From positions 1 through 64,000 of IMG/VR virus record IMGVR_UViG_3300028837_002886: a stretch of DNA of 64,000 nucleotides; one strand, written 5' to 3'. This DNA comes from a virus. The notes beneath the pieces were generated by a model, which was not told the origin of the DNA, ran no database searches, and saw nothing but the letters and a program-made list of their open reading frames with translations. Shown here piece after piece: positions 46,963-58,332 of the stretch. Position 1 is the stretch's first letter; each line of letters begins with the position of its first letter. The position numbers and the translations under genes are program-made.

Positions 46963-47151
46963 GGCCGATCGGCCAGAAGAAATGACGGGTTTCCACTGCG
47001 CGCAGGTGGGTATCTTTGGTGATCGATACACGTTTAAGTTAATACACTTAGAAGTGGTGCCAATTGGAATATTCACACGCCAACGACACGTCAAGCATGT
47101 TTTATTCATCAAAAGCATTTTAGCTTTTTTCTTGCGTGTCCAGTTTGCCAT
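46942..47151 (-). CDS. Small Cys-rich AKxLL-tag protein (start MANWTRK)
   Basis: KAKMLLMNKTCLTC...C...CAQW. Confidence 0.65.
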   Translation of the reverse strand: MANWTRKKKAKMLLMNKTCLTCRWRVNIPIGTTSKCINLNVYRSPKIPTCAQWKPVISSGRSAFTGRAI

Positions 47152-47452
47152 TATGTTTTTTCCGCATAAGAGATATGTATTTTTTATGCGTACGTTCCAC
47201 ATGTTGCCAGAAGTCATCACGCTTATGGGCGTCATTCACATGAGGATAGTAATCTTCACAAAACAGTTCTTTTGGGACATCACACATTCCGCTGTCGTGT
47301 AAAAATGTGTTTCTTTCTTCAAGTCGACAATACCAGTCTTTATATTCAAAAGAGCCCTTTATACAATAGAGGCAATTTATACATCCTTTATCTAATAGCA
47401 GTTTTTTGGCGACGTTCGCTTTTTTCATACTATACGTTTTGAACCTTCCCAA
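47120..47452 (-). CDS. Small Cys-rich AKxLL-tag protein
   Basis: VAKKLLLDKGCINC...C...CEDY. Confidence 0.7.
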   Translation of the reverse strand: MGRFKTYSMKKANVAKKLLLDKGCINCLYCIKGSFEYKDWYCRLEERNTFLHDSGMCDVPKELFCEDYYPHVNDAHKRDDFWQHVERTHKKYISLMRKKHNGKLDTQEKS

Positions 47453-47652
47453 AAATCACATGTTCCCATGACATTTATTTTACAAACTTTACCAATAAAG
47501 TCATGATTTTTATTGTTACTCCAAAGCGGGTGCGCGCAATAATGCCCTATATTATTGCCGTATGCATCTAAATGATAAAAATGTATGCACCTCTGACATG
47601 TTTTACCTAATAATAATTTTTTTGCGCACTCTTTTGTAAATCTATCTCTCAT
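47425..47652 (-). CDS. Small Cys-rich AKxLL-tag protein
   Basis: CAKKLLLGKTCQRC...C...CDFW. Confidence 0.7.
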   Translation of the reverse strand: MRDRFTKECAKKLLLGKTCQRCIHFYHLDAYGNNIGHYCAHPLWSNNKNHDFIGKVCKINVMGTCDFWEGSKRIV

Positions 47653-47852
47653 TTCGTTTTATAACCGCGGTAAAAGTCCCGACATGTATAATCATTGGAA
47701 ATATTTTCGTCTACACCACTCTGCCGCGAACGCAACATGCATAAGTATTGGTATTTATGTGTTTTTGGATGAAGACGTCGGTATCCGTAAAGGCACTTGC
47801 AACAGTTTTTGTCCAACAATAATTTTTTAGCTACAACGCTCTTGCTTATCAT
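47649..47852 (-). CDS. Small Cys-rich AKxLL-tag protein
   Basis: VAKKLLLDKNCCKC...C...CRDF. Confidence 0.7.
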   Translation of the reverse strand: MISKSVVAKKLLLDKNCCKCLYGYRRLHPKTHKYQYLCMLRSRQSGVDENISNDYTCRDFYRGYKTK

Positions 47853-48448
47853 GGCATAGTTTCAGGATTAGAAAGCATACTGATAAAGGACCTGTATTCG
47901 CGTATCATGTTTATGAATATGTGTCCTTGTTCAATAGCATCATCAATAGCCTTGTGAGTGTGCTTGTGTGCCGTATTCATCCACCGGCCTGGCATCCTGG
48001 CTTTTGTTACTTTTCGGTACTCGCAATTTATCAAAAACATTGCAAAAGTTTTCATGTCCAGCGCAGAAAACGAAAATGGCGAATGCTTCATGAATCTTAT
48101 GAGATACCAGTATACAAAAGTGAAATCAAAACCTGCGGGAAAAGCAACGAGCACGGGTTTGCAGTTAAACTTCAAAGCGGTTGCAGTGACCCACTTGTGA
48201 AACCGTTTCATTACTTCTTCCGGATCTCCGGGATTCTTTCGGCATTCATCCCACGCCTCTTTGTTGCGACTCCAGAACTTCATGGTATTAGGATCCTGCT
48301 CTGCATCCGGAAGTTCCTTGAGATTAGCTTCAAATGTTCCTACCATGTTTCCTTCACGGTCAAATGCCGCGGCCGCAATGCTCAACATAGAGTTAGGACC
48401 AGGTATGGGACCGTCTGCTTCTACGTCAACACTAAAGTACATTTCCAT
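47849..48448 (-). CDS. DEDD 3'-5' exonuclease
   Basis: SVDVEADGPIPG, FDFTF, HTHKAIDDA. Confidence 0.88.
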   Translation of the reverse strand: MEMYFSVDVEADGPIPGPNSMLSIAAAAFDREGNMVGTFEANLKELPDAEQDPNTMKFWSRNKEAWDECRKNPGDPEEVMKRFHKWVTATALKFNCKPVLVAFPAGFDFTFVYWYLIRFMKHSPFSFSALDMKTFAMFLINCEYRKVTKARMPGRWMNTAHKHTHKAIDDAIEQGHIFINMIREYRSFISMLSNPETMP

Positions 48449-48839
48449 CTTGTTTACCCTTTTCCATTATTTTATTCAAATCCATATTGAATGGATCAAA
48501 TCTTTTTTTGTATGCATCAGTTTTTTTATAGTTTTCTTCCTGATAATGTCTGGCCAAAACTATTTGTTCGGTGGCCTTTTTAATCTTTTTAGATATACGC
48601 ATCATTATGCGCTCTTCCCAATGTTTAGGATACCTGATGCGCCAGCTATACACTATTTTGTAAGCGTGACCGCCGACCTTCATCATACAATACATAAAAG
48701 CCGCATACAGCGCAACTTTAATATACCACGTCATGAGCTCGTGATTGTGAAACATACACAGCCCTATGGCCAACAAAGCACCTACGCCGATCCAAATAAT
48801 AATGCCGCTCCATACGCTTGCTTCTTTCTCCTTTTTCAT
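48432..48839 (-). CDS. Two-TM membrane protein (likely start MKKEKE)
   Basis: Two hydrophobic helices. Confidence 0.65.
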   Translation of the reverse strand: MKKEKEASVWSGIIIWIGVGALLAIGLCMFHNHELMTWYIKVALYAAFMYCMMKVGGHAYKIVYSWRIRYPKHWEERIMMRISKKIKKATEQIVLARHYQEENYKKTDAYKKRFDPFNMDLNKIMEKGKQDGNVL

Positions 48840-48867
48840 AAACAGCCCCTTCTCCTGTAAATTATTA

Positions 48868-49896
48868 TCATGATAAGTTCTTCCGCGAATCAAACGCATC
48901 TCTCACGCCTTCTCCAACAAAGATGAGAAGTGAAAGTAAAACCGAAAGCACCACAAATGAAGTAATTCCTAACCAAGGCGCCTGCAAATTGGCCTTTCCT
49001 TGAGCCAGTAATCTCCCTAACGAAGGAGATCCGGCTGGAAGCCCGAATCCCAGAAAATCAAGAGAAGTAAGAGCGACGATGGAACCATTTAGAATGAACG
49101 GCAAAAACGTTAACGTAGCAACCATTGCGTTAGGAAGTATATGCTTAAACATAATCTTAAAATCTTTGACACCCAAGGCTCTTGCGGCTTTAACATACTC
49201 AAAATTTCGGGTCCGTAAAAATTCTGCGCGCACTACCCCAACTAACGACAGCCATGAAAACAAAAGTAAGATTAACAACAGCAACGCAAAGTTTGGAGTA
49301 ATAATACTAGTAATAATTATTATCAAAAACAATGTTGGTATCGAGCCCCAGATTTCAATGAACCTTTGCATCAATAGATCAACTCTACCACCAAAATAAC
49401 CCTGAACCGCTCCTGCCATTATTCCGATAGCAGAACTACATGTGGTCAATACAAGTCCGAAAATTACAGATATCCTGAAACCGTAAATCACCAGCGCGAC
49501 TACATCATGACCTTGGTCATCGGTTCCCAGCCAATGTCTCAGAGAAGGTTTAGTTGGTGCTGGTTCCGTCATTATATAATCAATTGTATCAAATTTATAC
49601 TTAATCGCTGGCCAGATAATCCAGCCGTTGTTTTTTATCAACTCTTCAAGATATGGATCATGATAATCTGCCTTTATGTTTAATGTCCCGCCGAAATCCA
49701 TCTCCGTATAATTTTTGGTTATTGGAAAGTAAAACCGATCTGCGTATCTTATAAGCAGAGGACTATCGTTTGCTATGAACTCGGCAAAAAGTGAAAAAAC
49801 AAAAAGAAAAAGGAATATCCAGAGCGACCAGTACGCCCTTCTGTTTGCTATAAAATTATCTAATCTTCTTCTTGCTACCAGGCTTAGTTCTTTCAT
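48868..49896 (-). CDS. yejE: Peptide ABC transporter permease, YejE-like
   Basis: F..NRRAYWSL, AEFIAND.PL, HWLGTDDQG, EFLRTRNFEYV.AARALG, GEGVRDAFD. Confidence 0.92.
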   Translation of the reverse strand: MKELSLVARRRLDNFIANRRAYWSLWIFLFLFVFSLFAEFIANDSPLLIRYADRFYFPITKNYTEMDFGGTLNIKADYHDPYLEELIKNNGWIIWPAIKYKFDTIDYIMTEPAPTKPSLRHWLGTDDQGHDVVALVIYGFRISVIFGLVLTTCSSAIGIMAGAVQGYFGGRVDLLMQRFIEIWGSIPTLFLIIIITSIITPNFALLLLILLLFSWLSLVGVVRAEFLRTRNFEYVKAARALGVKDFKIMFKHILPNAMVATLTFLPFILNGSIVALTSLDFLGFGLPAGSPSLGRLLAQGKANLQAPWLGITSFVVLSVLLSLLIFVGEGVRDAFDSRKNLS

Positions 49897-49905
49897 CCCT
49901 AATCC

Positions 49906-50325
49906 TTATTCCAGGACTGCTTCGGTCACTCCCCAAATTTTAATTTCCACGACCTCTCGATGTTCAGTAAACACAAATACACCAAAATACTCTTCGCGCG
50001 AGTCAACACGTCTATTGCCTTGGTGATATACTTTTAGATGCTGCACTACCTGCTTGTTCTGCGTATTCATATAGACATACAAGTACTCCATCGTCCATCC
50101 TATTACCACTTCGCTTCCCTTGTTAGTCAAAACATACGAAACTGAAACCAGCGAACCAACCTGGGTCCAATCTCTTAATTCAATCTGTAAGGGAGACATA
50201 ATGCCCTGTTTCTCATAGGCCTTCTTGGATGAAAAGTGGTTCGGATATTTTGCCACACTTCCTACAATCACCGCAAAACCTATAAGAAATGAGATAAATA
50301 ATATATCACGGCCGCGTTTTGTCAT
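49906..50325 (-). CDS. Membrane-anchored hypothetical protein
   Basis: N-terminal TM followed by a beta-rich domain. Confidence 0.65.
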   Translation of the reverse strand: MTKRGRDILFISFLIGFAVIVGSVAKYPNHFSSKKAYEKQGIMSPLQIELRDWTQVGSLVSVSYVLTNKGSEVVIGWTMEYLYVYMNTQNKQVVQHLKVYHQGNRRVDSREEYFGVFVFTEHREVVEIKIWGVTEAVLE

Positions 50326-50340
50326 GTCATGACCCCTTTA

Positions 50341-50535
50341 TTAAGACGTCTCATTTATCTCAGCAAGTCGTTTCACGCTCTTTGCGTGAAACTCTGCGTG
50401 CTTAGTCAAATGAGACTTTTCCCACTCAATCATTGCTTCTAGGTTGGCAATATGTTGTGCGCCTTCTGCCAGGTACTTCTCATTCCAAGCAATCTTTGCT
50501 TCAAGCTGTTCTTTAGTCATATGATTACAACTCAT
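50341..50535 (-). CDS. Small coiled-coil protein
   Basis: Internal repeat LEAKIAWNEKYL / LEAMIEWEKSHL. Confidence 0.6.
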   Translation of the reverse strand: MSCNHMTKEQLEAKIAWNEKYLAEGAQHIANLEAMIEWEKSHLTKHAEFHAKSVKRLAEINETS

Positions 50536-50682
50536 CTCTACTTTCCTTAATTAAGTATTTACTTTTAATACCCGCCATTTATATAGGACGGCCGGCAATG
50601 CTTTCTCATTTTCCGATCCATATAACCCTTGTAGTACACATGATGGAACCGAAAAGTGTACTTAAACCATCTTCCTATGATC

Positions 50683-50931
50683 CTACTCAATCTTTTCATG
50701 ACGCATCTCCTTTAGTTTCTTTTTTTCAATCCGTATTGAAACACAATCGCTATATGTTCTCACATAGTAGGCCCAGCCCTTAATTACTTTCACCTGCCAC
50801 TCATATTTGTCACCATAAAGATCTTGAATCTCAGCCACTCGCTCACGCGCATCAATAAGATGCTTAAAAACTTCTACGGAGACATCAGTATGGGTATCTT
50901 CTGTAATAACTATGTACACTTCCATTTTCAA
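50683..50931 (-). CDS. Small hypothetical phage protein
   Basis: 82 aa with an MEVYIV..VF-type start. Confidence 0.6.
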   Translation of the reverse strand: MKMEVYIVITEDTHTDVSVEVFKHLIDARERVAEIQDLYGDKYEWQVKVIKGWAYYVRTYSDCVSIRIEKKKLKEMRHEKIE

Positions 50932-50960
50932 CCACCTTGGTTTATTTTTAATCTCACTTT

Positions 50961-51219
50961 TTACACCTCGCGCGTTTCAAAGTCAATACGAGGATCTATG
51001 AACATATACATCACAACCACAACCACCTATCTTTTTTTTCTCTACCGCATTTCTCACATCGAAAAATAGCTATGCGCAGAGTTCCTCCCCATATAGCATA
51101 ATACATGCCACGTTTCCACTGATGCTTACATTTCACCAAACGATTCCATATTTTCTTTAATCTTTCCATCAAACCTCTCTAGTTTCAAAGTCAATACGAG
51201 GATCTATGAACATATACAT
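50961..51219. repeat. Direct repeat of the yejB 3' end (38 bp identical: 50974-51011 and 51182-51219)
   Basis: gtttcaaagtcaatacgaggatctatgaacatatacat occurs twice; both copies encode MYMFIDPRIDFETREV*. Confidence 0.95.
51011..51169 (-). CDS. 52-aa zinc-ribbon-like protein between the repeats (not in ORF track)
   Basis: MERLKKIWNRLVKCKHQW...FRCEKCGREKKDRWLWL; TGATG overlaps at both ends. Confidence 0.7.
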   Translation of the reverse strand: MERLKKIWNRLVKCKHQWKRGMYYAIWGGTLRIAIFRCEKCGREKKDRWLWL

Positions 51220-52272
51220 TAGATCTCCGATTAGTTTTAGAAATAAACCCATGAGACTAAATACATATAGTGTCGCAAACATTACCGCATAATCCCTGCC
51301 CAAGGCCGACTCGAACCCCAAGAGCCCTAGCCCATCAAGAGAGAAAATTACTTCTATTAAAACAGAACCGGTGAATAGAACGCTTATAAATGCAGATGGA
51401 AACCCGGCAATAATAATCAACATGGCATTTCTAAACACGTGACCATAAAGAATTTTCTTCTGCTTGAGGCCTTTTGATTGAGCTGTGATTACATACTGCT
51501 TGCTTATTTCAGCCAAAAACGCGTTCTTTGTGAATATAGTAAGGCCTGCAAACCCGCCTATTGTCATCGCAAATATAGGTAGTACCAAATGCCAAAAGTA
51601 ATCGGCTATCTTCATGCCAAATGAAAAGGTGGCCCACCCATCTGAGACCAATCCTCTTAAAGGAAATATATTCAAAAAGCTCCCGCCAGAGAAGAGTATT
51701 ATCAACATAATGGCAAATAAGAAACTGGGTATTGCATAACCAATTGTTACAACAAATGAACTCCATAAATCGAATTTTGTTCCATCTCTTATTGCTTTCT
51801 TGATGCCTAGTGGAATTGAGATTAGATAAGTCAATAGCGTTGTCCATATACCCAACGAGATTGACACTGGCATTTTCTCTAAAACCAAATCAAGAACTTT
51901 TCTGTCTCTGTAATAGCTGGTTCCAAAATCAAACCTTATGTAATTCCACATCATAATAAAAAACCGTTTATAAAGTGGTTTATCAAAACCATACATCTCT
52001 TCAATTTCCATAATCAGTTCGGGATCCAATCCTTGAGCTCCTCGATACTTTGACTCCATCCCAACCTGCTTGTCTGTTTTTGTTTGACTAACCTCGCCAC
52101 CACCACCTTTCGTTATTCTTTCAGTAACTGCAACATCAACGCCTTTGAGCCGAGCAATCGTTTTTTCAACAGGACCACCTGGGGCCGATTGTATTATGAA
52201 AAAATTAATAATCATAATCCCAATTAGTGTAGGAATAATAAGACCCAAGCGTCTGAGGATATAGGATATCAC
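51169..52272 (-). CDS. yejB: Peptide ABC transporter permease, YejB-like
   Basis: YILRRL..IPTL.GI..INF.IIQ.APGGPVE, SKYRGAQGLDPE, KMPVSISLG, DPRIDFE.RE. Confidence 0.95.
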   Translation of the reverse strand: MISYILRRLGLIIPTLIGIMIINFFIIQSAPGGPVEKTIARLKGVDVAVTERITKGGGGEVSQTKTDKQVGMESKYRGAQGLDPELIMEIEEMYGFDKPLYKRFFIMMWNYIRFDFGTSYYRDRKVLDLVLEKMPVSISLGIWTTLLTYLISIPLGIKKAIRDGTKFDLWSSFVVTIGYAIPSFLFAIMLIILFSGGSFLNIFPLRGLVSDGWATFSFGMKIADYFWHLVLPIFAMTIGGFAGLTIFTKNAFLAEISKQYVITAQSKGLKQKKILYGHVFRNAMLIIIAGFPSAFISVLFTGSVLIEVIFSLDGLGLLGFESALGRDYAVMFATLYVFSLMGLFLKLIGDLMYMFIDPRIDFETREV

Positions 52273-52619
52273 TTCACAATCCTTGCTAAAAAGTCCCCAC
52301 CTATTATAATAACCCTATCGTCCTTAGTTCGAACAACCAGCACCCCACCATCTTCAAGCGACCAAGATTTACATGTTTCTATAACAGAGGCACTCCTGTA
52401 TGGTACATCAATATCAATCCAAGTTGTAGTCGCTACTCCGTCAATCACAACGGTGGGCTCGGTTAACATGGGCTCACTAACCTCTTGAGCCTGTGCCATT
52501 TCTGGTTGATCAAATTGAAGCCTACTTGCGATAAAGAGTACGGCGACAAAAACAAGAACCACAATAACAAAAATAATCACAAAACGTAAGGTTGTGGACA
52601 CACTTTTTAACCAACTCAT
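52269..52619 (-). CDS. Membrane-anchored hypothetical protein
   Basis: GGAGG SD; N-terminal TM. Confidence 0.7.
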   Translation of the reverse strand: MSWLKSVSTTLRFVIIFVIVVLVFVAVLFIASRLQFDQPEMAQAQEVSEPMLTEPTVVIDGVATTTWIDIDVPYRSASVIETCKSWSLEDGGVLVVRTKDDRVIIIGGDFLARIVK

Positions 52620-52632
52620 TTTTAAAAACCTC

Positions 52633-54210
52633 CTAAATTATATCAAATGCAGCCTTAACTAGAGCTTGTGTATATACGCTCTTTGGTTTCTCAAGGACCT
52701 CTCCAGCCTTGCCCTCCTCCATAACTACACCATCTTTAATAACGATAATCAAATGACTCATCGCCTTTACAACGCGAAGATCGTGACTTATAAATAAATA
52801 TGCCAGTTTATAGGTGCGCTGCAACTCTAATAAGAGATCTATCAGCTGATTTTGAATTGATCGATCCAAAGCTGATGTAGGCTCATCTAGAATTAAAAGT
52901 TTGGGTTTTAACACTAGCGCTCTAGCTATACATATGCGTTGTCTTTGACCTCCACTAAACTCGTGTGGATATCTATTTCGGATGTCTGGCTCCAAGCCTA
53001 CTTTGATTAAAGTTTGCCATACCATATCATTCCAACAACCCTTAATGTTGTGAGCGGATAATCCTTCTTCTATAATTTGGCCTACAGTTAAACGAGGGTT
53101 AAGGCTTGCGAAAGGATCTTGAAACACAATTTGAATTTCTTGTCTGTAAGGTCTCATTTCTCCACTTAGAAGATTGTTTAATTCTACGCCTTGAAACTTG
53201 ATCTGGCCTTTACTAGAAATCAATCTCAAAACCGCTAACCCAAACGAGGTTTTGCCCGATCCGCTTTCTCCAACCAAACCGACCGTCTCTCCCTCTTTGA
53301 TTTTAATCGTGATTCCATCAACAGCTTTCACATATCCTTTTACTTTCCTGAACATGCCTTTATATATAGGATAATGTACTTTAAGATCGTTGGTTTCTAA
53401 AACTAGTTTTTTCTTGGTAGTTTCTATAGGCTTTTGCTTTGGAATAGACGCAAGCAAATACTTTGTATATGAGTGTTGAGGATGTTTAAAAATACTAAGA
53501 TTATCCCCGCTTTCTACAATCTCCCCATCTTTCATTACGCCAATACGGTCAGCCATTTTTTCTACTATATAAAGATCGTGCGTGATTAACAACATTGACA
53601 TATGTAACTTGTCGCGAAGCTCTCTTATGAGCTTCAATATCTCTCGCTGTATCGTGACATCCAGAGCGGTTGTGGGTTCGTCTGCTATTAATAAATCTGG
53701 CTTGTTTGCGAGAGCTAAGGCTATCATAACTCGCTGTCTCTGACCGCCAGACAACTGGTGCGGAAATGAACTCAAGCGCTGCTCGGCATGATCTAGCTGA
53801 ACCTGATCCAACAACTCGATCGTTCTTGCCCTTCTTTCGCCCCCTGTTACATCTTGATGAAGATCGATAATCTCACCGATTTGCTTCTCGATTGTATGGA
53901 GAGGATTAAGCGATGTCATAGGCTCTTGGAATATTATAGAAACATCATTTCCTCTAATCTTTCTCAATCTCTCCTCGGAACATTCAAAAACATTGTTGTT
54001 CTTTAATATTATTGAGCCATCGTATCTCGTATAAGCAGGTAACAGTTGCATAATCGCATGAGCGGTGGCCGACTTACCTGCTCCACTTTCCCCTACGAGA
54101 GCAAAAGTTTCTCCTTTTTTAATGTCAAAAGAGACACCTCGGACAGCATCAATGCGCTGTTGAGGCATCTCAAACTTTACAAATAGATTCTTTATAGTGA
54201 GTAAGCTCAT
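52633..54210 (-). CDS. yejF: Dual-NBD ABC ATPase, YejF-like
   Basis: Two Walker A motifs (GESGAGKS, GESGSGKT), LSGGQRQR/FSGGQRQR, and DEPT motifs. Confidence 0.92.
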   Translation of the reverse strand: MSLLTIKNLFVKFEMPQQRIDAVRGVSFDIKKGETFALVGESGAGKSATAHAIMQLLPAYTRYDGSIILKNNNVFECSEERLRKIRGNDVSIIFQEPMTSLNPLHTIEKQIGEIIDLHQDVTGGERRARTIELLDQVQLDHAEQRLSSFPHQLSGGQRQRVMIALALANKPDLLIADEPTTALDVTIQREILKLIRELRDKLHMSMLLITHDLYIVEKMADRIGVMKDGEIVESGDNLSIFKHPQHSYTKYLLASIPKQKPIETTKKKLVLETNDLKVHYPIYKGMFRKVKGYVKAVDGITIKIKEGETVGLVGESGSGKTSFGLAVLRLISSKGQIKFQGVELNNLLSGEMRPYRQEIQIVFQDPFASLNPRLTVGQIIEEGLSAHNIKGCWNDMVWQTLIKVGLEPDIRNRYPHEFSGGQRQRICIARALVLKPKLLILDEPTSALDRSIQNQLIDLLLELQRTYKLAYLFISHDLRVVKAMSHLIIVIKDGVVMEEGKAGEVLEKPKSVYTQALVKAAFDII

Positions 54211-54235
54211 AATAACCTTGAGGGGTCAGTTACAT

Positions 54236-55324
54236 TTACCAGCGCTTTTTAAGTGTATGCGTGAGAACCTCGCACCCGCCCTTTGTTACAAGAATGTCAT
54301 CCTCAAGACGAACCCCATAATCACCAGGTAAATAGATACCTGGTTCTACTGTTAAAACCATGTTTTCTTCAAACACGTCAGGATATTGGCTGTCATGAAT
54401 GTCAAGCCCAATACCATGCCCAAGTCCATGAATCCAGCTGTTCTTATATCTCCCATATCCAGTTGTTATTTTCTTCGCCTCTTTTATTACATCTTCCGAC
54501 TTAATCCCAGGTTTAATCATGCTAATGGCAAGCAGCTGCGCTTCAAGAACTTTATTGTACATATGTTTTTTCCATCGATCTGGAGTTCCCATAAAATATA
54601 CCTGAGTAATATCAGACTTGTAGCCCTCGACCTCAGCACCAAAATCAATGAGTACTACATCATCTTTCATTAGGGTGGTGGTTCCAGAAGAGTGGTGAGG
54701 TACACTGGTATTCTTTTCAAAGGCCACGATGGTAGAGAACGCAGGATCATCTGAACCCATCTTCTTCATATGATACTCCACCTCGGCCGCTAAATCCATC
54801 TCGCTCATTCCCTCATGTAAAAATGTAGGTAATATTACAGTTAGTCTACTAACTATTTCGCATGCGCGTTTTATTTTATCTATCTCATCCGGAGATTTGA
54901 TACTTCTGCGCTTTGCAAAAAGATCCGTTACATCGAAAATTGAGTTACGAGCTACAAAGATTTCCTCTATTGTACGATAAGAGCTGTGTAAAAGAGAGCC
55001 AAAGCAAAGTCCTATCTTATAGAACTTTGGGAGGATTTTCTTAAGCATTTCATCTCGCTCTTGTATTTTACTCCAAACTACAAATTCGTCATAGCTTGCC
55101 TGGCGTCGATTTAGCTCTTGATCTCGACTTGGTGAAAATAATGTAATCTTCCCGCTTTTCTCCAGGAGTACTGCAGCCCCCTCGCTTTTGGAGGAAGTAA
55201 AGCCCGTTACATACGTGAGATTCTTATCTACAATCATATCGCTCCAGAGAAATATTGCGTCACAGTTGCCTGGCATTCCGTCTATGATATTCTTAATCCT
55301 CGGTTTACACTCGTCTTTAATCAC
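54236..55324 (-). CDS. Xaa-Pro peptidase (M24 family)
   Basis: PHH, IDFG..YKSDIT, HGLGHGIGLDIHD, TVEPGIY, GVRLEDD. Confidence 0.93.
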   Translation of the reverse strand: MIKDECKPRIKNIIDGMPGNCDAIFLWSDMIVDKNLTYVTGFTSSKSEGAAVLLEKSGKITLFSPSRDQELNRRQASYDEFVVWSKIQERDEMLKKILPKFYKIGLCFGSLLHSSYRTIEEIFVARNSIFDVTDLFAKRRSIKSPDEIDKIKRACEIVSRLTVILPTFLHEGMSEMDLAAEVEYHMKKMGSDDPAFSTIVAFEKNTSVPHHSSGTTTLMKDDVVLIDFGAEVEGYKSDITQVYFMGTPDRWKKHMYNKVLEAQLLAISMIKPGIKSEDVIKEAKKITTGYGRYKNSWIHGLGHGIGLDIHDSQYPDVFEENMVLTVEPGIYLPGDYGVRLEDDILVTKGGCEVLTHTLKKRW

Positions 55325-55336
55325 ATGCCGATCCTT

Positions 55337-56359
55337 TTAAACAGATTTTACTTGCTCATCAAGATAACTAAATACGTTTTCGGACTTTACAACATGATGA
55401 TTTATTTCAATCTTGTCCAAATCGTGTGCTGTTATAAAATCAAATATGAAGTCCTTTTGTCTGTTGGAAAAGTCGCCATCTAAATTATACATTCTAAAGG
55501 ATGAAATCTTAACCCAGTTCTGTCGTTCTAAATCGTTCTCCTGTGTGACGTTTTCCACAATTCCCTCTTCTGCTAATGCTTCCATAAGAACAATGTGTCC
55601 CATATAAGGACAAGGATAAAAATCTCCATCGGGGCTAAGCCATCCAGAAGAAGAATCTTTCGGTTTTCCCTTTGTTGCTCCAAGGCTATCTATTTTTGTT
55701 TCATTTTCGATAAACTCATCTGTCGTCCTGGGGCCGGCCGCTATGCTCTCGTTAAGCTTTCTTATTGATGCATCAAAAAGCGTTTTTGCGTTTTGAGCAT
55801 CTAGATCGTCTTTTATATAACTCGCATCTTTGCTGAACTCGGCATTTCTTAACGCCTCTTCGACTTTGTTTTCAAAATCCGTAATGGATCTGTTTGATAT
55901 GTTATAAAGAAACATTAAATTTCTCAAATATTCAAATGTTTTTTTCTCCATACTCAAGGCGGCGTTTTTGGCTTCTGTTTGTGTATCAAGTATTCCAACT
56001 CCCCGACCAAGACCAAGATATTTAATCATGTTGTTTCTAAGGGTGAGATCATATTTAAGTTTATCGGTCCTTAGCTCGATATATTTCTTTTCGAACCAGT
56101 CCATCATCTCATCAGTAGTGATTCCCTTGTAATTGTCGGTTTCTGAATAAAGATTTGGATCGTTGCGAGTATCTCCACCTAGTTTCATGCGGCCTTCGAA
56201 CAAACTAATAGCTTGTTCTTCATTCATTCCCAGACCCTCTTTTGCTGTTTTAAAAGCATGTATACAACTTCTTTCTTCCCAGAGATCCCTCATAATTTTA
56301 GTCAGGTGTTCTCCGGTTGTCCAGAATGTTAAGCTTTGATCCTTCATTTGTTTATCCAT
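55337..56359 (-). CDS. Hypothetical phage protein
   Basis: 340 aa with a C-terminal GWLSPDGDFYPC..GH motif. Confidence 0.75.
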   Translation of the reverse strand: MDKQMKDQSLTFWTTGEHLTKIMRDLWEERSCIHAFKTAKEGLGMNEEQAISLFEGRMKLGGDTRNDPNLYSETDNYKGITTDEMMDWFEKKYIELRTDKLKYDLTLRNNMIKYLGLGRGVGILDTQTEAKNAALSMEKKTFEYLRNLMFLYNISNRSITDFENKVEEALRNAEFSKDASYIKDDLDAQNAKTLFDASIRKLNESIAAGPRTTDEFIENETKIDSLGATKGKPKDSSSGWLSPDGDFYPCPYMGHIVLMEALAEEGIVENVTQENDLERQNWVKISSFRMYNLDGDFSNRQKDFIFDFITAHDLDKIEINHHVVKSENVFSYLDEQVKSV

Positions 56360-56631
56360 TAGATACTGAGCTCCTCGTAATCCTTAGTGTACAGTTTTTC
56401 GTTTATTTTTTCAATGGCATAATGTTTTGCGTCCCAAGAATCATGAAAATCTTTGACCTTAACCTGGAGTTTTTTATTCAGCTCTATACGCCCCCACTTG
56501 GTGATCACCTGATTGCCTTTTACCGAAACCATCCAAACCTTGTAATGGTTGTCGCTGGTACAGAAAAAAACTCTTTCATCACACTCTTTTGTGAGCATAT
56601 ATCTCGCGAGCTCAGAGTTTTTAAGTTCCAC
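56359..56631 (-). CDS. WGR-domain protein with N-terminal ARYML tag variant
   Basis: HYKVW....GNQVITKWGRI...EKL..KDY. Confidence 0.8.
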   Translation of the reverse strand: MELKNSELARYMLTKECDERVFFCTSDNHYKVWMVSVKGNQVITKWGRIELNKKLQVKVKDFHDSWDAKHYAIEKINEKLYTKDYEELSI

Positions 56632-56866
56632 TCAACTCCTCCCTCAAAGCTTTTAACTCTTTATAGTGTTCGCATGTTCTAGTCGTTGGCACATCAGACA
56701 CACGTCTCTCGAGTGTTCTCTTTCGATCTGGTTCCCGGTATTCTGGAACGCACCAAACAGGGTAGCCGGAATCCATAATACTCCCCCGAGTTCGCCATCC
56801 ACACGTCTCACAGTTTTTAAGTAAAAGCCCCTTGGCTATTTCTGCTTTGGCTGAAACCATTCGCAT
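56621..56866 (-). CDS. Small Cys-rich AKxLL-tag protein
   Basis: IAKGLLLKNCETC...C...CEHY. Confidence 0.7.
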   Translation of the reverse strand: MRMVSAKAEIAKGLLLKNCETCGWRTRGSIMDSGYPVWCVPEYREPDRKRTLERRVSDVPTTRTCEHYKELKALREELSGT

Positions 56867-57084
56867 TTCCCATCGTGGTTCAGGATTTCATCACAAGTCC
56901 CGGCATGTTCCAACTTCAAACGTTTGTATTTCTTTTTCCGCAATATTCTTTTTCTGCCAGGAAGCTTGCAAAAAGAAAATCCGTAATCCAATCCCATGGT
57001 GAAAATATAATGCCGGCATCCTTCGCATGAGTGAATATCTCTTCCCAACAGAAGATTTTTGGCTTCTGCCGACTTATAATCCAT
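56836..57084 (-). CDS. Small Cys-rich AKxLL-tag protein
   Basis: EAKNLLLG..SCEGC...C...CEWF. Confidence 0.7.
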   Translation of the reverse strand: MDYKSAEAKNLLLGRDIHSCEGCRHYIFTMGLDYGFSFCKLPGRKRILRKKKYKRLKLEHAGTCDEILNHDGKCEWFQPKQK

Positions 57085-57093
57085 TGTATATAT

Positions 57094-57279
57094 CTATGCT
57101 TCAGGGTAATCAGAGCCCATATTCATGAGTTCAGAAGGTCTTATGGCGCCCGCGACATAAAGCAAATGAGCCAAGTCTTTAGACAGACAGTCTTTACAGT
57201 TATTTGGGTAACAGTTACAGAAAGCCTTGCAGCCACTATCTACCAACATTGGTTTGTGTAGTATATAAGGATTATTCAT
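57094..57279 (-). CDS. Small Cys-rich protein
   Basis: 61 aa, overlapping the upstream stop. Confidence 0.5.
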   Translation of the reverse strand: MNNPYILHKPMLVDSGCKAFCNCYPNNCKDCLSKDLAHLLYVAGAIRPSELMNMGSDYPEA

Positions 57280-57613
57280 TGGAACTCCCTAGAAGTGATT
57301 TTGCTGTGTTTCTTTTTTCGATTTGTTTTTCGTTGGCTATGTCAGCAAGCTGTTTAGAGTATTTCACTATAAGATTACGACCTTTTTCAATATGCTCGCT
57401 GGTGAGATGTCGGCCATTTTTGAGCCATTCTGCATAATAACTGCCGCGCTTGGCATCAAAAGCACTAAAACCGACCCCATTGCTATATAGAGTGGATTCA
57501 GCAACTTGCTCGGAAACTGCTTGTTTGCCGTAAATGGCCAGTATTCCTCTTTCAACAGCCTTGTCTGATTTTGATAGTAACTCTTTGATTTCTTCTTTGG
57601 TATAAGTTTTCAT
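57272..57613 (-). CDS. Conserved phage hypothetical protein with C-terminal AKSLL tag
   Basis: SDKAVERGILAIY.KQ...NGVGF..FDA...KY.KQL; leaderless after a sigma70 promoter. Confidence 0.8.
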   Translation of the reverse strand: MKTYTKEEIKELLSKSDKAVERGILAIYGKQAVSEQVAESTLYSNGVGFSAFDAKRGSYYAEWLKNGRHLTSEHIEKGRNLIVKYSKQLADIANEKQIEKRNTAKSLLGSSNE

Positions 57614-57675: not shown

Positions 57676-57875
57676 TCAGAACGTAAAGCCATAGAAGTGC
57701 TTCGTTCTTCGTGTGGCCTCTTCGAGTGCCTCCTTGTGAGTCATACCGTGTTTTGATTCCAAATGAGTCGTGGTTCTGTGTATCATGCCATCAAACTCGC
57801 ATATGACGAGTCTATTTTTTCGCCTTTAAGAAGCTGCTTGGCATAATCCCGTCGGAGTTTCTTGTTGCCGCTCAC
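57676..57875 (-). pseudogene. Ros/MucR-like zinc-finger gene with AKQLL tag, frameshifted at the A6 run 57815-57820
   Basis: GTG 57875 gives MSGNKKLRRDYAKQLLKGEK; adding one A continues NRLVICEFDG..THLESKHGMTHKE; span is 200 nt (3n-1). Confidence 0.55.
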
Positions 57876-58066
57876 TCGTACCATTTATCTATCTCATCGA
57901 ACCAGTATGAGACTTCAGGTTCGTTAATATATTCCAGAAGCAGTTTGTCGGCTTTTACGTGATCTTCAACAACATGGCTGCTGTTGATTGCCACGTCTTT
58001 TAATTCAGCTATCAATCTCTTTATTCGATCGGTCAGAAGATATTTCGCGAACTGGGGCTTTGTCAT
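57872..58066 (-). CDS. Small AKxLL-tag protein
   Basis: FAKYLL; HVKADKLLL...IDKWY. Confidence 0.7.
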   Translation of the reverse strand: MTKPQFAKYLLTDRIKRLIAELKDVAINSSHVVEDHVKADKLLLEYINEPEVSYWFDEIDKWYE

Positions 58067-58332
58067 TTCTCAGCCACCTTTCTATAAAAGTTCCCATTGA
58101 GACTTTTTTTTCTTCTAAAAGAAGACGCTTGGCTACCTCTTTTCTGTACCAAACATCAAAGTCGTCGAAGTTTCTGATCTTGTTCAATTTTAGTATGCCT
58201 TTTCTCTTCGTCTATTTTGACACGCATCTGCCAGGCATCTCCAATAAGCCTAAAAAGGTACTTTGTTTTTAATGGCTTCTTGAGAAAAGCCTTGGCCCAT
58301 ACTGCTTTGCTTTTACGACTGAGTTCTTTCAT
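58005..58332 (-). CDS. Two small overlapping ORFs (58156..58332 and 58005..58187), or one frameshifted gene, each with an AKxxL tag
   Basis: MKELSRKSKAVWAKAFLKK and EVAKRLLLE. Confidence 0.45.

Follow-up and report, generated by a model that had tools for sequence, protein, structure and literature searches.

A rearranged YejB-YejE-YejF importer core paired with a prolidase-like peptidase in the genome of a sediment phage

Why would a virus carry the membrane machine of a bacterial peptide importer without the binding protein that delivers the peptides? This question is raised by a locus in IMG/VR virus record IMGVR_UViG_3300028837_002886, of which we analysed positions 1 to 64,000 (hereafter the window). 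The full record, linear with open ends, measures 130,931 bp, and the window covers its first 64 kb; the sequencing runs containing the stretch carry the label marine sediment metagenome. An initial annotation, made from the letters of the DNA alone, had described yejF-, yejB- and yejE-like open reading frames (ORFs) together with an M24 peptidase at positions 48868-55324, and had proposed that they form a domesticated uptake-and-digest module. Our analysis suggests, with a probability of roughly one half, that the locus is a phage auxiliary set in which a YejB-YejE-YejF complex and the M24 peptidase take up and digest peptides, fed by a binding protein of the host.

The four genes were found where they had been placed, all on the minus strand, and the three transport proteins are Yej-like along almost their whole lengths. 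In Pfam, YejB scored 111 bits with BPD_transp_1, YejE 104.1 bits with BPD_transp_1 and 25.3 bits with OppC_N, and YejF 213.2 bits in two ABC_tran stretches and 40 bits with oligo_HPY. Both permeases exceeded the cut-offs of their NCBIfam models: YejB reached 523.8 bits with NF011712 (cut-off 445; residues 1-365 on model positions 1-364 of 364) and YejE 499.4 bits with NF011596 (cut-off 439; residues 1-339 on positions 1-339 of 341). The top NCBIfam match of the 525-amino-acid (aa) ORF was YejF (652.3 bits, E 5e-196; residues 2-519 on positions 4-527 of 529). This score is under the YejF equivalog cut-off of 834, as is that of a cellular YejF (722.6) from the metagenome-assembled genome (MAG) of Spirochaetes bacterium HyVt-370 (locus L005). 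In the translation, each of the two ATP-binding domains shows readable Walker A, signature, Walker B and H-loop motifs. PHROG families 293 and 20966 also matched the transport proteins of the module.

There is no sign of decay in these genes. For comparison we took 143 YejB, 116 YejE and 95 YejF sequences of cellular loci, each covering 90% or more of the query and less than 90% identical to the phage protein, and considered the columns conserved at 98% or more. The phage proteins had changed 0 of 89 such columns in YejB, 0 of 79 in YejE and 0 of 111 in YejF (279 in total), and cellular members left out one at a time as a control changed 0-2. The ratio of nonsynonymous to synonymous substitutions (dN/dS), obtained by Nei-Gojobori counts against two diverged relatives (L132 and L085), was 0.075 and 0.11 for yejB (dS 0.25-0.26) and 0.11 for yejF against L132 (dS 0.18). 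The yej genes are thus held under purifying selection in the phage. Relaxed selection, which the initial annotation had named as grounds for abandoning its proposal, is rejected by these ratios and by the intact conserved columns.

The peptidase has the architecture of a prolidase, with 198.6 bits for Peptidase_M24 (cut-off 23) and 43 bits for Creatinase_N (cut-off 22) in Pfam. Its best solved relatives are the Xaa-Pro dipeptidases of Pyrococcus horikoshii (1wy2, E 4e-52) and P. furiosus (1pv9, E 4e-51), with which it shares the domain layout, a similar length and the metal-ligand columns. Residues D227, D238, H303, E327 and E341 are invariant across 14 aligned sequences and align with 1wy2; they are presumably the metal ligands (Asp, Asp, His, Glu, Glu) of this family. 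The phage enzyme differs from archaeal and bacterial prolidases in being phage-borne, in its low identity to cellular proteins and in scoring below the NCBIfam equivalog cut-offs (PepQ_Arch, 185.3 against 630; PRK09795, 162.9 against 393; PRK10879, 114.5 against 465). Two relatives had 85% (P0122) and 67% (P0123) identity, followed by cellular proteins at 46% or less, among which the named matches were Spirochaetota MAGs and archaea. An M24 gene near cellular yej genes was found in none of 80 genome loci at E 1e-10 or better, and in one of 75 metagenome loci as a weak 25% match. The longest contig recorded for a YejB homologue (P0022, 70% identity) measures 23,603 bases, as does that for an M24 homologue (P0124, 46% identity); should the two be identical, M24 and yej are linked elsewhere too.

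The arrangement of the genes is not that of a bacterial operon. In the direction of transcription the order is o340, M24, yejF, o116, yejB, four small ORFs, o139, yejE and o155, with six ORFs interleaved among the three yej genes. The ORF coordinates therefore bear out the described order F-B-E downstream of the peptidase with small phage ORFs in between. Among the cellular loci with all three genes the order was B-E-F in 92 of 92, with gaps of less than 200 bp in 80 and insertions of up to 3.2 kb in 12, so that the module had rightly been called rearranged. The genes are closely packed. By their coordinates, 25 bp separate M24 and yejF, 13 bp yejF and o116, and 9 bp o139 and yejE; o116 and yejB, as well as yejB and the next ORF, overlap by 4 nt, and the longest frame of o155 overlaps yejE by 32 nt. 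In front of each larger gene stands a ribosome-binding sequence resembling AAGG or GGAGG. Promoter and terminator scans were not above shuffled sequences (38 against 30.1, standard deviation (sd) 4.4, and 10 against 7.2, sd 2.8) and defined no transcription units, and an AAGATAA motif occurred at chance level (20 against 18.7).

The yejA gene, which was reported as absent from the window, is absent from the whole record. A six-frame search of the 130,931 bp, window included, with PF00496 found no family-5 binding protein; as a control, it detected the family in 11 of 14 named genomes. When the record was searched by tblastn with eight YejA sequences of the donor clade described below, the lowest E was 0.093; with a profile of these sequences it was 0.85. 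A distant phage copy, which the initial annotation had allowed for, is therefore excluded for the 131 kb of the record and could lie only in the missing ~30% of the genome.

The module is part of the phage genome. In the probable source sample the region is covered by two contigs (47500-51003 and 51190-57400) joined by a 230-nt piece. Contigs of a second sample (X3) span o155/yejE/o139 (48176-50069), yejB/o116 (52202-52605) and yejF/M24 (53249-54460), and one of a third sample (X4) spans o116/yejF (52393-53081), all with no letter differing from the window; both samples come from the same study as the source, and count as independent assemblies but not as independent habitats. A sample of another study (X6) gave just short pieces without differing letters (records 25, 31 and 32; 157-331 nt), which is too little for a second habitat. 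Diverged relatives have the same layout: L132 carries yejF (95% aa identity), o116 (53-60%) and yejB (94%), and L085 carries yejB (96%), a different 114-aa ORF, the 44-aa ORF o44 (82%) and o139 (68%). Viral genes lie reproducibly on both sides, on the tail side and on the replication side, as seen also in the contigs of other samples and in the relatives. PHROG families for baseplate, tail and tape-measure proteins occur at 16-34 kb of the window; further along the record, at 82-127 kb, a helicase and a polymerase of the DnaE type are encoded. The base composition of the yej genes has moved to that of the phage: their G+C content (GC) is 0.38-0.40 and that at third codon positions (GC3) 0.36-0.37, compared to phage means over 136 ORFs of 0.404 (sd 0.027) and 0.414 (sd 0.052), respectively, whereas the GC3 of the nearest cellular copies is 0.53-0.86 in eight of nine loci (L089 being the exception). 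We therefore regard the locus with high confidence as a genuine and selected phage module.

Where did the genes come from? YejB has thousands of homologues, one with 96% identity (P0001, on a 3.2-kb contig) and the next with 72-75%. We made trees by quick maximum-likelihood searches (LG+G4, with SH-aLRT supports only) from 41 of the 92 loci with all three genes, namely the 28 best by summed score and every fifth of the remainder. Phage YejB, YejE and YejF each fell in the same 11-row clade (SH-aLRT 99, 99 and 100), which consists of nine metagenome contigs, the HyVt-370 MAG and the phage. The end branches of the phage had roughly double the median length (0.43 against 0.22, 0.30 against 0.18 and 0.62 against 0.27), and identity to the nearest cellular proteins was 68-74% for YejB and YejE and 55-62% for YejF. 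Such trees would fit a single capture or several captures from the same lineage. The genome of HyVt-370 also encodes, on another contig, an M24 homologue with 45% identity, equal to the best cellular matches found. The Yej trees and the M24 relatives together point to a Spirochaetota-like donor, which perhaps was also the host. The yej genes lie within a viral genome, are nested in a cellular clade and are under purifying selection; they are host-derived viral auxiliary genes.

The operon of this donor clade shows what has changed in the phage. In all eight donor-clade loci with room upstream, an ORF of 607-742 aa lies directly upstream of yejB; the one in the HyVt-370 locus encodes a binding protein of family 5 (SBP_bac_5, 222.2 bits). 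A gene for a VanY-type D-Ala-D-Ala carboxypeptidase precedes yejA in seven of the eight loci with at least 3.5 kb upstream, giving the operon vanY-yejA-yejB-yejE-yejF (L005 1997-8896; L086, L091, L092, L144, L145 and L152); none of the 95 other loci that extend 3.5 kb or more upstream had a VanY gene within 4.5 kb. Compared to the donors, the phage has yejF at the front, yejA and vanY gone, phage ORFs inserted and M24 at the head. The donor-clade operon thus resembles the phage set in having the nearest relatives of all three proteins and in pairing a peptidase gene with the transporter, but its peptidase is an M15 VanY and not an M24 enzyme, its binding protein is present and its GC3 is different. 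It is a separate lead in itself, suggesting that Yej uptake of cell-wall peptides may exist outside Alphaproteobacteria.

Since the phage encodes an importer core without a binding protein, it probably boosts peptide uptake by borrowing the binding protein of its host, and a host protein of the YejA type seems to us the most economical choice. The phage-made YejB-YejE-YejF complex would be inserted in the inner membrane of the infected cell, where the extra complexes would receive their peptides from a family-5 binding protein that the host already has in its periplasm, either YejA or a paralogue, and the capacity for oligopeptide uptake would be raised. The M24 enzyme, acting in the cytoplasm, would open proline-containing peptides that ordinary aminopeptidases handle poorly, and the imported peptides would supply amino acids for phage protein synthesis in the nutrient-poor sediment. 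In ATP-binding cassette (ABC) importers, the binding protein as a rule greatly outnumbers the membrane complex. Supply in trans is also plausible by precedent, because the YejBEF of Agrobacterium works with an unlinked binding protein, YepA, according to the cited part of the work on this importer (PMC9790009).

Several points weigh against this proposal. The host binding protein is assumed to dock on permeases just 68-74% identical to the nearest cellular ones. The Xaa-Pro specificity of the M24 enzyme would follow from its relatives, and the enzyme falls below every equivalog cut-off. The record has a CheckV completeness of ~70%, and a phage yejA could sit in the missing part. The two relatives that share the layout are short contigs and may have been collected in one campaign together with the window. 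For the Spirochaetota label the named records are few: one MAG for Yej, one YejB match and three M24 matches. Finally, the link with vanY in the donor clade hints at cell-wall peptides rather than at peptides derived from proteins.

The last point leads to a rival explanation that we consider rather unlikely, namely that the complex imports cell-wall peptides or muropeptides through a YejA- or YepA-like protein of the host. It would then maintain or exploit wall recycling during infection, or scavenge fragments from lysed neighbours. The VanY gene upstream of yejA, found in seven of eight donor-clade loci and in none of the 95 other loci, fits this explanation, and so does the Agrobacterium precedent, as YejBEF-YepA is described in the cited part of the same source as an importer for muropeptide recycling (PMC9790009). 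However, the phage has retained neither vanY nor yejA, and among the neighbours scanned there is no amidase or other recycling enzyme. The partner peptidase is moreover of the Xaa-Pro type, and to our knowledge the stem peptides of peptidoglycan are without proline.

It is unlikely, a little more so, that the phage importer is complete and that yejA or another binding protein is encoded in the missing ~30% of the genome. The incompleteness and the open ends of the linear record leave room for such a gene, and whole ABC systems including a binding protein have been found beside 15 PspA genes in huge phages, as far as the cited portion of that preprint goes (bioRxiv 10.64898/2026.10.24.761521). 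Against this, the 130,931 bp hold no trace of yejA, and with the three core genes clustered it would be strange for a fourth to lie far away.

The cargo might instead be toxic or signalling peptides, whose import and degradation would alter the sensitivity of the cell to antimicrobial peptides, or which would be imported as signals. YejABEF has been tied to resistance against antimicrobial peptides and to the uptake of microcin C and phazolicin (PMC10128002, in the part cited), and an adjoining peptidase suits a scheme of import and degradation. We give this little credence, however, as no feature of the locus indicates a specific peptide, the translations of the small ORFs between the genes have no N-terminus resembling a signal peptide, and no gene for a regulator or receptor was seen.

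The coordinates of the genes in the locus are given in Table 1.

Table 1. Genes of the importer locus and its immediate neighbour, in the order of transcription (positions in the window)
Feature	Positions	Strand	Basis or remark
o340, 340 aa, 12 bp upstream of the peptidase	55337-56359	-	no Pfam or NCBIfam match; weak PHROG match
M24 peptidase, 362 aa	54236-55324	-	Peptidase_M24 and Creatinase_N
yejF, 525 aa, fused double ATP-binding subunit	52633-54210	-	two ABC_tran stretches and oligo_HPY
o116, 116-aa predicted single-pass membrane ORFan	52269-52619	-	N-terminal helix
yejB, 367 aa, permease 1	51169-52272	-	BPD_transp_1, NCBIfam YejB
53-aa ORF	51011-51172	-	variable cassette
82-aa ORF	50683-50931	-	variable cassette
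44-aa ORF (o44)	50565-50699	-	variable cassette
64-aa ORF	50341-50535	-	variable cassette
o139, 139-aa predicted single-pass membrane ORFan, all-beta outer domain	49906-50325	-	models
yejE, 342 aa, permease 2	48868-49896	-	BPD_transp_1 and OppC_N, NCBIfam YejE
o155, 155-aa membrane ORF directly downstream of yejE	48432-48899	-	hydrophobic segment

The small membrane ORFs beside the permease genes could change the picture, because the initial annotation had offered two of them, at 52269 (o116) and 49906 (o139), as possible binding subunits. By their AlphaFold2 models both are predicted to be single-pass membrane proteins with small outer domains. The model of o116 has a helix at residues 2-36 and a mean predicted local distance difference test score (pLDDT) of 54.2, only the N-terminal helix being confident, and that of o139 has a helix at residues 3-25 and a poor pLDDT of 42.6. 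One true homologue of o116 was found among 1.84 billion representatives; matches to giant repeat proteins cover only a linker of ~20-35 residues and were ignored. For o139 there were four homologues with 56-59% identity among 5.8 billion proteins. Both proteins are confined to this phage lineage. They have been kept in the relatives, with o116 between yejF and yejB in L132 as well (dN/dS 0.52) and o139 retained after yejB in L085 (dN/dS 0.35). Alignments by hhalign of o116 with YejA, of o139 with YejA and of o116 with o139 each gave a probability of less than 1%, which rules out that the two are remnants of YejA. An Atlas model of o139 (predicted TM score (pTM) 0.58) is not two-lobed; it looks like small beta-sandwich proteins with a membrane anchor, for example DUF2393 and DUF3426, a likeness that we regard as a lead only. 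As neither protein is related to YejA and the o139 model is unlike a binding protein, their suggested role as binding subunit did not hold up and is unlikely.

Their position next to the permeases may nevertheless mean something. The third membrane ORF, o155, has one hydrophobic segment in a scan of 19-residue stretches and a second by eye, and has no Pfam or PHROG match. Such a segment was found in 17 of 211 minus-strand ORFs including YejB and YejE, that is, in 15 of 209 other ORFs. Four ORFs border the two permease genes, and three of these are membrane ORFans (binomial probability, calculated by hand, ~0.001): o116 and o139 each lie just before a permease gene and o155 just after yejE. Two of these three hold their position in the diverged relatives. 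A chance placement is unlikely, and the three small proteins are probably phage-specific accessory or assembly partners of the permeases. A bolder version, in which o116, o139 and o155 replace or gate the binding protein, would make this a Yej system rebuilt by the phage, with uptake independent of a binding protein or controlled by the phage; its cargo may be, for example, a peptide signal or wall fragments from lysed neighbouring cells. We hold this to be very improbable.

That the locus is an assembly chimera or decaying passenger host DNA can be practically dismissed: the identity of the Yej proteins to cellular ones and the presence of canonical yejA-B-E-F at the edge of two other IMG/VR contigs with yejB would be compatible with it, but the junctions are bridged in other samples, the composition including GC3 is that of the phage, phage ORFs are interleaved in a layout common to two diverged relatives, dN/dS is ~0.1 and no conserved column is lost, so that the chimeric assembly feared in the initial annotation is rejected.

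Between yejB and o139 lies a cassette of four small ORFs (50341-51172), for which no Pfam or PHROG match was obtained among those tested. In the corresponding cassette of L085 (1030-1513 of that contig) the 44-aa ORF is kept, a single 114-aa ORF stands in place of those of 53 and 82 aa, and there is no counterpart of the 64-aa ORF. The dN/dS of o44 was 0.07, a value from 44 codons only. The contigs of the source sample break within the cassette, at 51003-51190. The stretch downstream of yejB is probably a hot spot at which closely related phages exchange small ORFs.

How does the locus compare with systems already known? It is like proteobacterial YejABEF in that YejB and YejE are above the subfamily cut-offs, the fused double ATPase is nearest to YejF and the conserved columns are kept. 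It differs in being phage-borne, in the lack of yejA, in the order F-B-E with six ORFs between the genes, and in the M24 gene at its head, a place taken by vanY-yejA in the donor clade. With YejBEF-YepA of Agrobacterium it would share the use of a binding protein encoded elsewhere. Transport genes as such are not new in phages, as shown by pstS in cyanophages. The PspA-adjacent ABC systems of huge phages and the members of PHROG 293 and 20966 are, like the present genes, derived from hosts and located in a large phage genome. In the cited portion of the preprint, though, the huge-phage systems include the binding protein, whereas this phage has only a translocator and motor, of the Opp/Dpp/Yej class and paired with a peptidase (bioRxiv 10.64898/2026.10.24.761521). 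'Oligopeptide transport' genes on prophages are mentioned in passing in the part cited of another report (PMC12013270). The literature searched on yejABEF, on microcin C transport and on phage-encoded or auxiliary transporters described no phage Yej system. New here are the re-ordered importer core without a binding protein, the interleaved membrane ORFans of the phage and the prolidase-like partner, while ABC genes of phages were already known.

Auxiliary genes of phages are usually one enzyme or one binding protein, but in this case a whole importer membrane machine and a peptidase are under selection. If our proposal of host-fed uptake and digestion is true, phages of energy-starved sediments would invest in the nitrogen and amino-acid supply of their hosts, and a virus could swap in an ABC translocator while the periplasmic binding proteins of the host are reused. 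The locus is also a natural experiment on how much divergence of a translocator (~30%) is tolerated by a binding protein, and on whether an ABC importer can be modified by small phage membrane proteins.

The phage lineage itself is new, because its DnaE-like polymerase has only 30-32% identity to anything among the GenBank phages and a megablast of 48-57 kb against them gave no match. The best tblastn matches in GenBank phages (57.7% for YejB, 47.7% for YejF) lie on short 'Bacteriophage sp.' entries devoid of annotation or on entries annotated with canonical yej genes, and were set aside. Scans of IMG/VR with single YejB, YejF and polymerase proteins found nothing, and neither did one with the M24 alignment; records very near the window's own were possibly outside all of these IMG/VR scans. 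The scan with the YejB alignment found the two contigs mentioned above, both with cellular-type yejA-B-E-F at the contig edge, which look like host flanks. The polymerase is split in two ORFs ~5 kb apart (record positions 118672-120780 and 125662-126882), one matching positions 42-440 of phrog_405 and the other positions 441-1053; the genes between them include a 668-aa phrog_5982 protein.

Around the module lie genes of phage accessory types, including an exonuclease, a tRNA nucleotidyltransferase, NT5C, NUDIX and WGR proteins and a MoxR-type ATPase with its VWA partner. For o340 there was no usable match in the Atlas, and its Atlas model had a pTM of 0.16. Directly upstream of o340 is a 90-aa stand-alone WGR-domain protein (56359-56631; Pfam 29.9 bits). 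The MoxR-like AAA ATPase (60578-61672) and the DUF2201 metallopeptidase-like/VWA protein that comes after it (59274-60578) form a pair known from bacteria and here found on a phage. Many small minus-strand ORFs around the module (47120-47852, 56621-57084, 57872-58187 and 58765-58977) have a similar start, A-K-x-L-L; as read by eye from the translations, the motif is often followed by pairs of Cys, and the remainder differs between the proteins.

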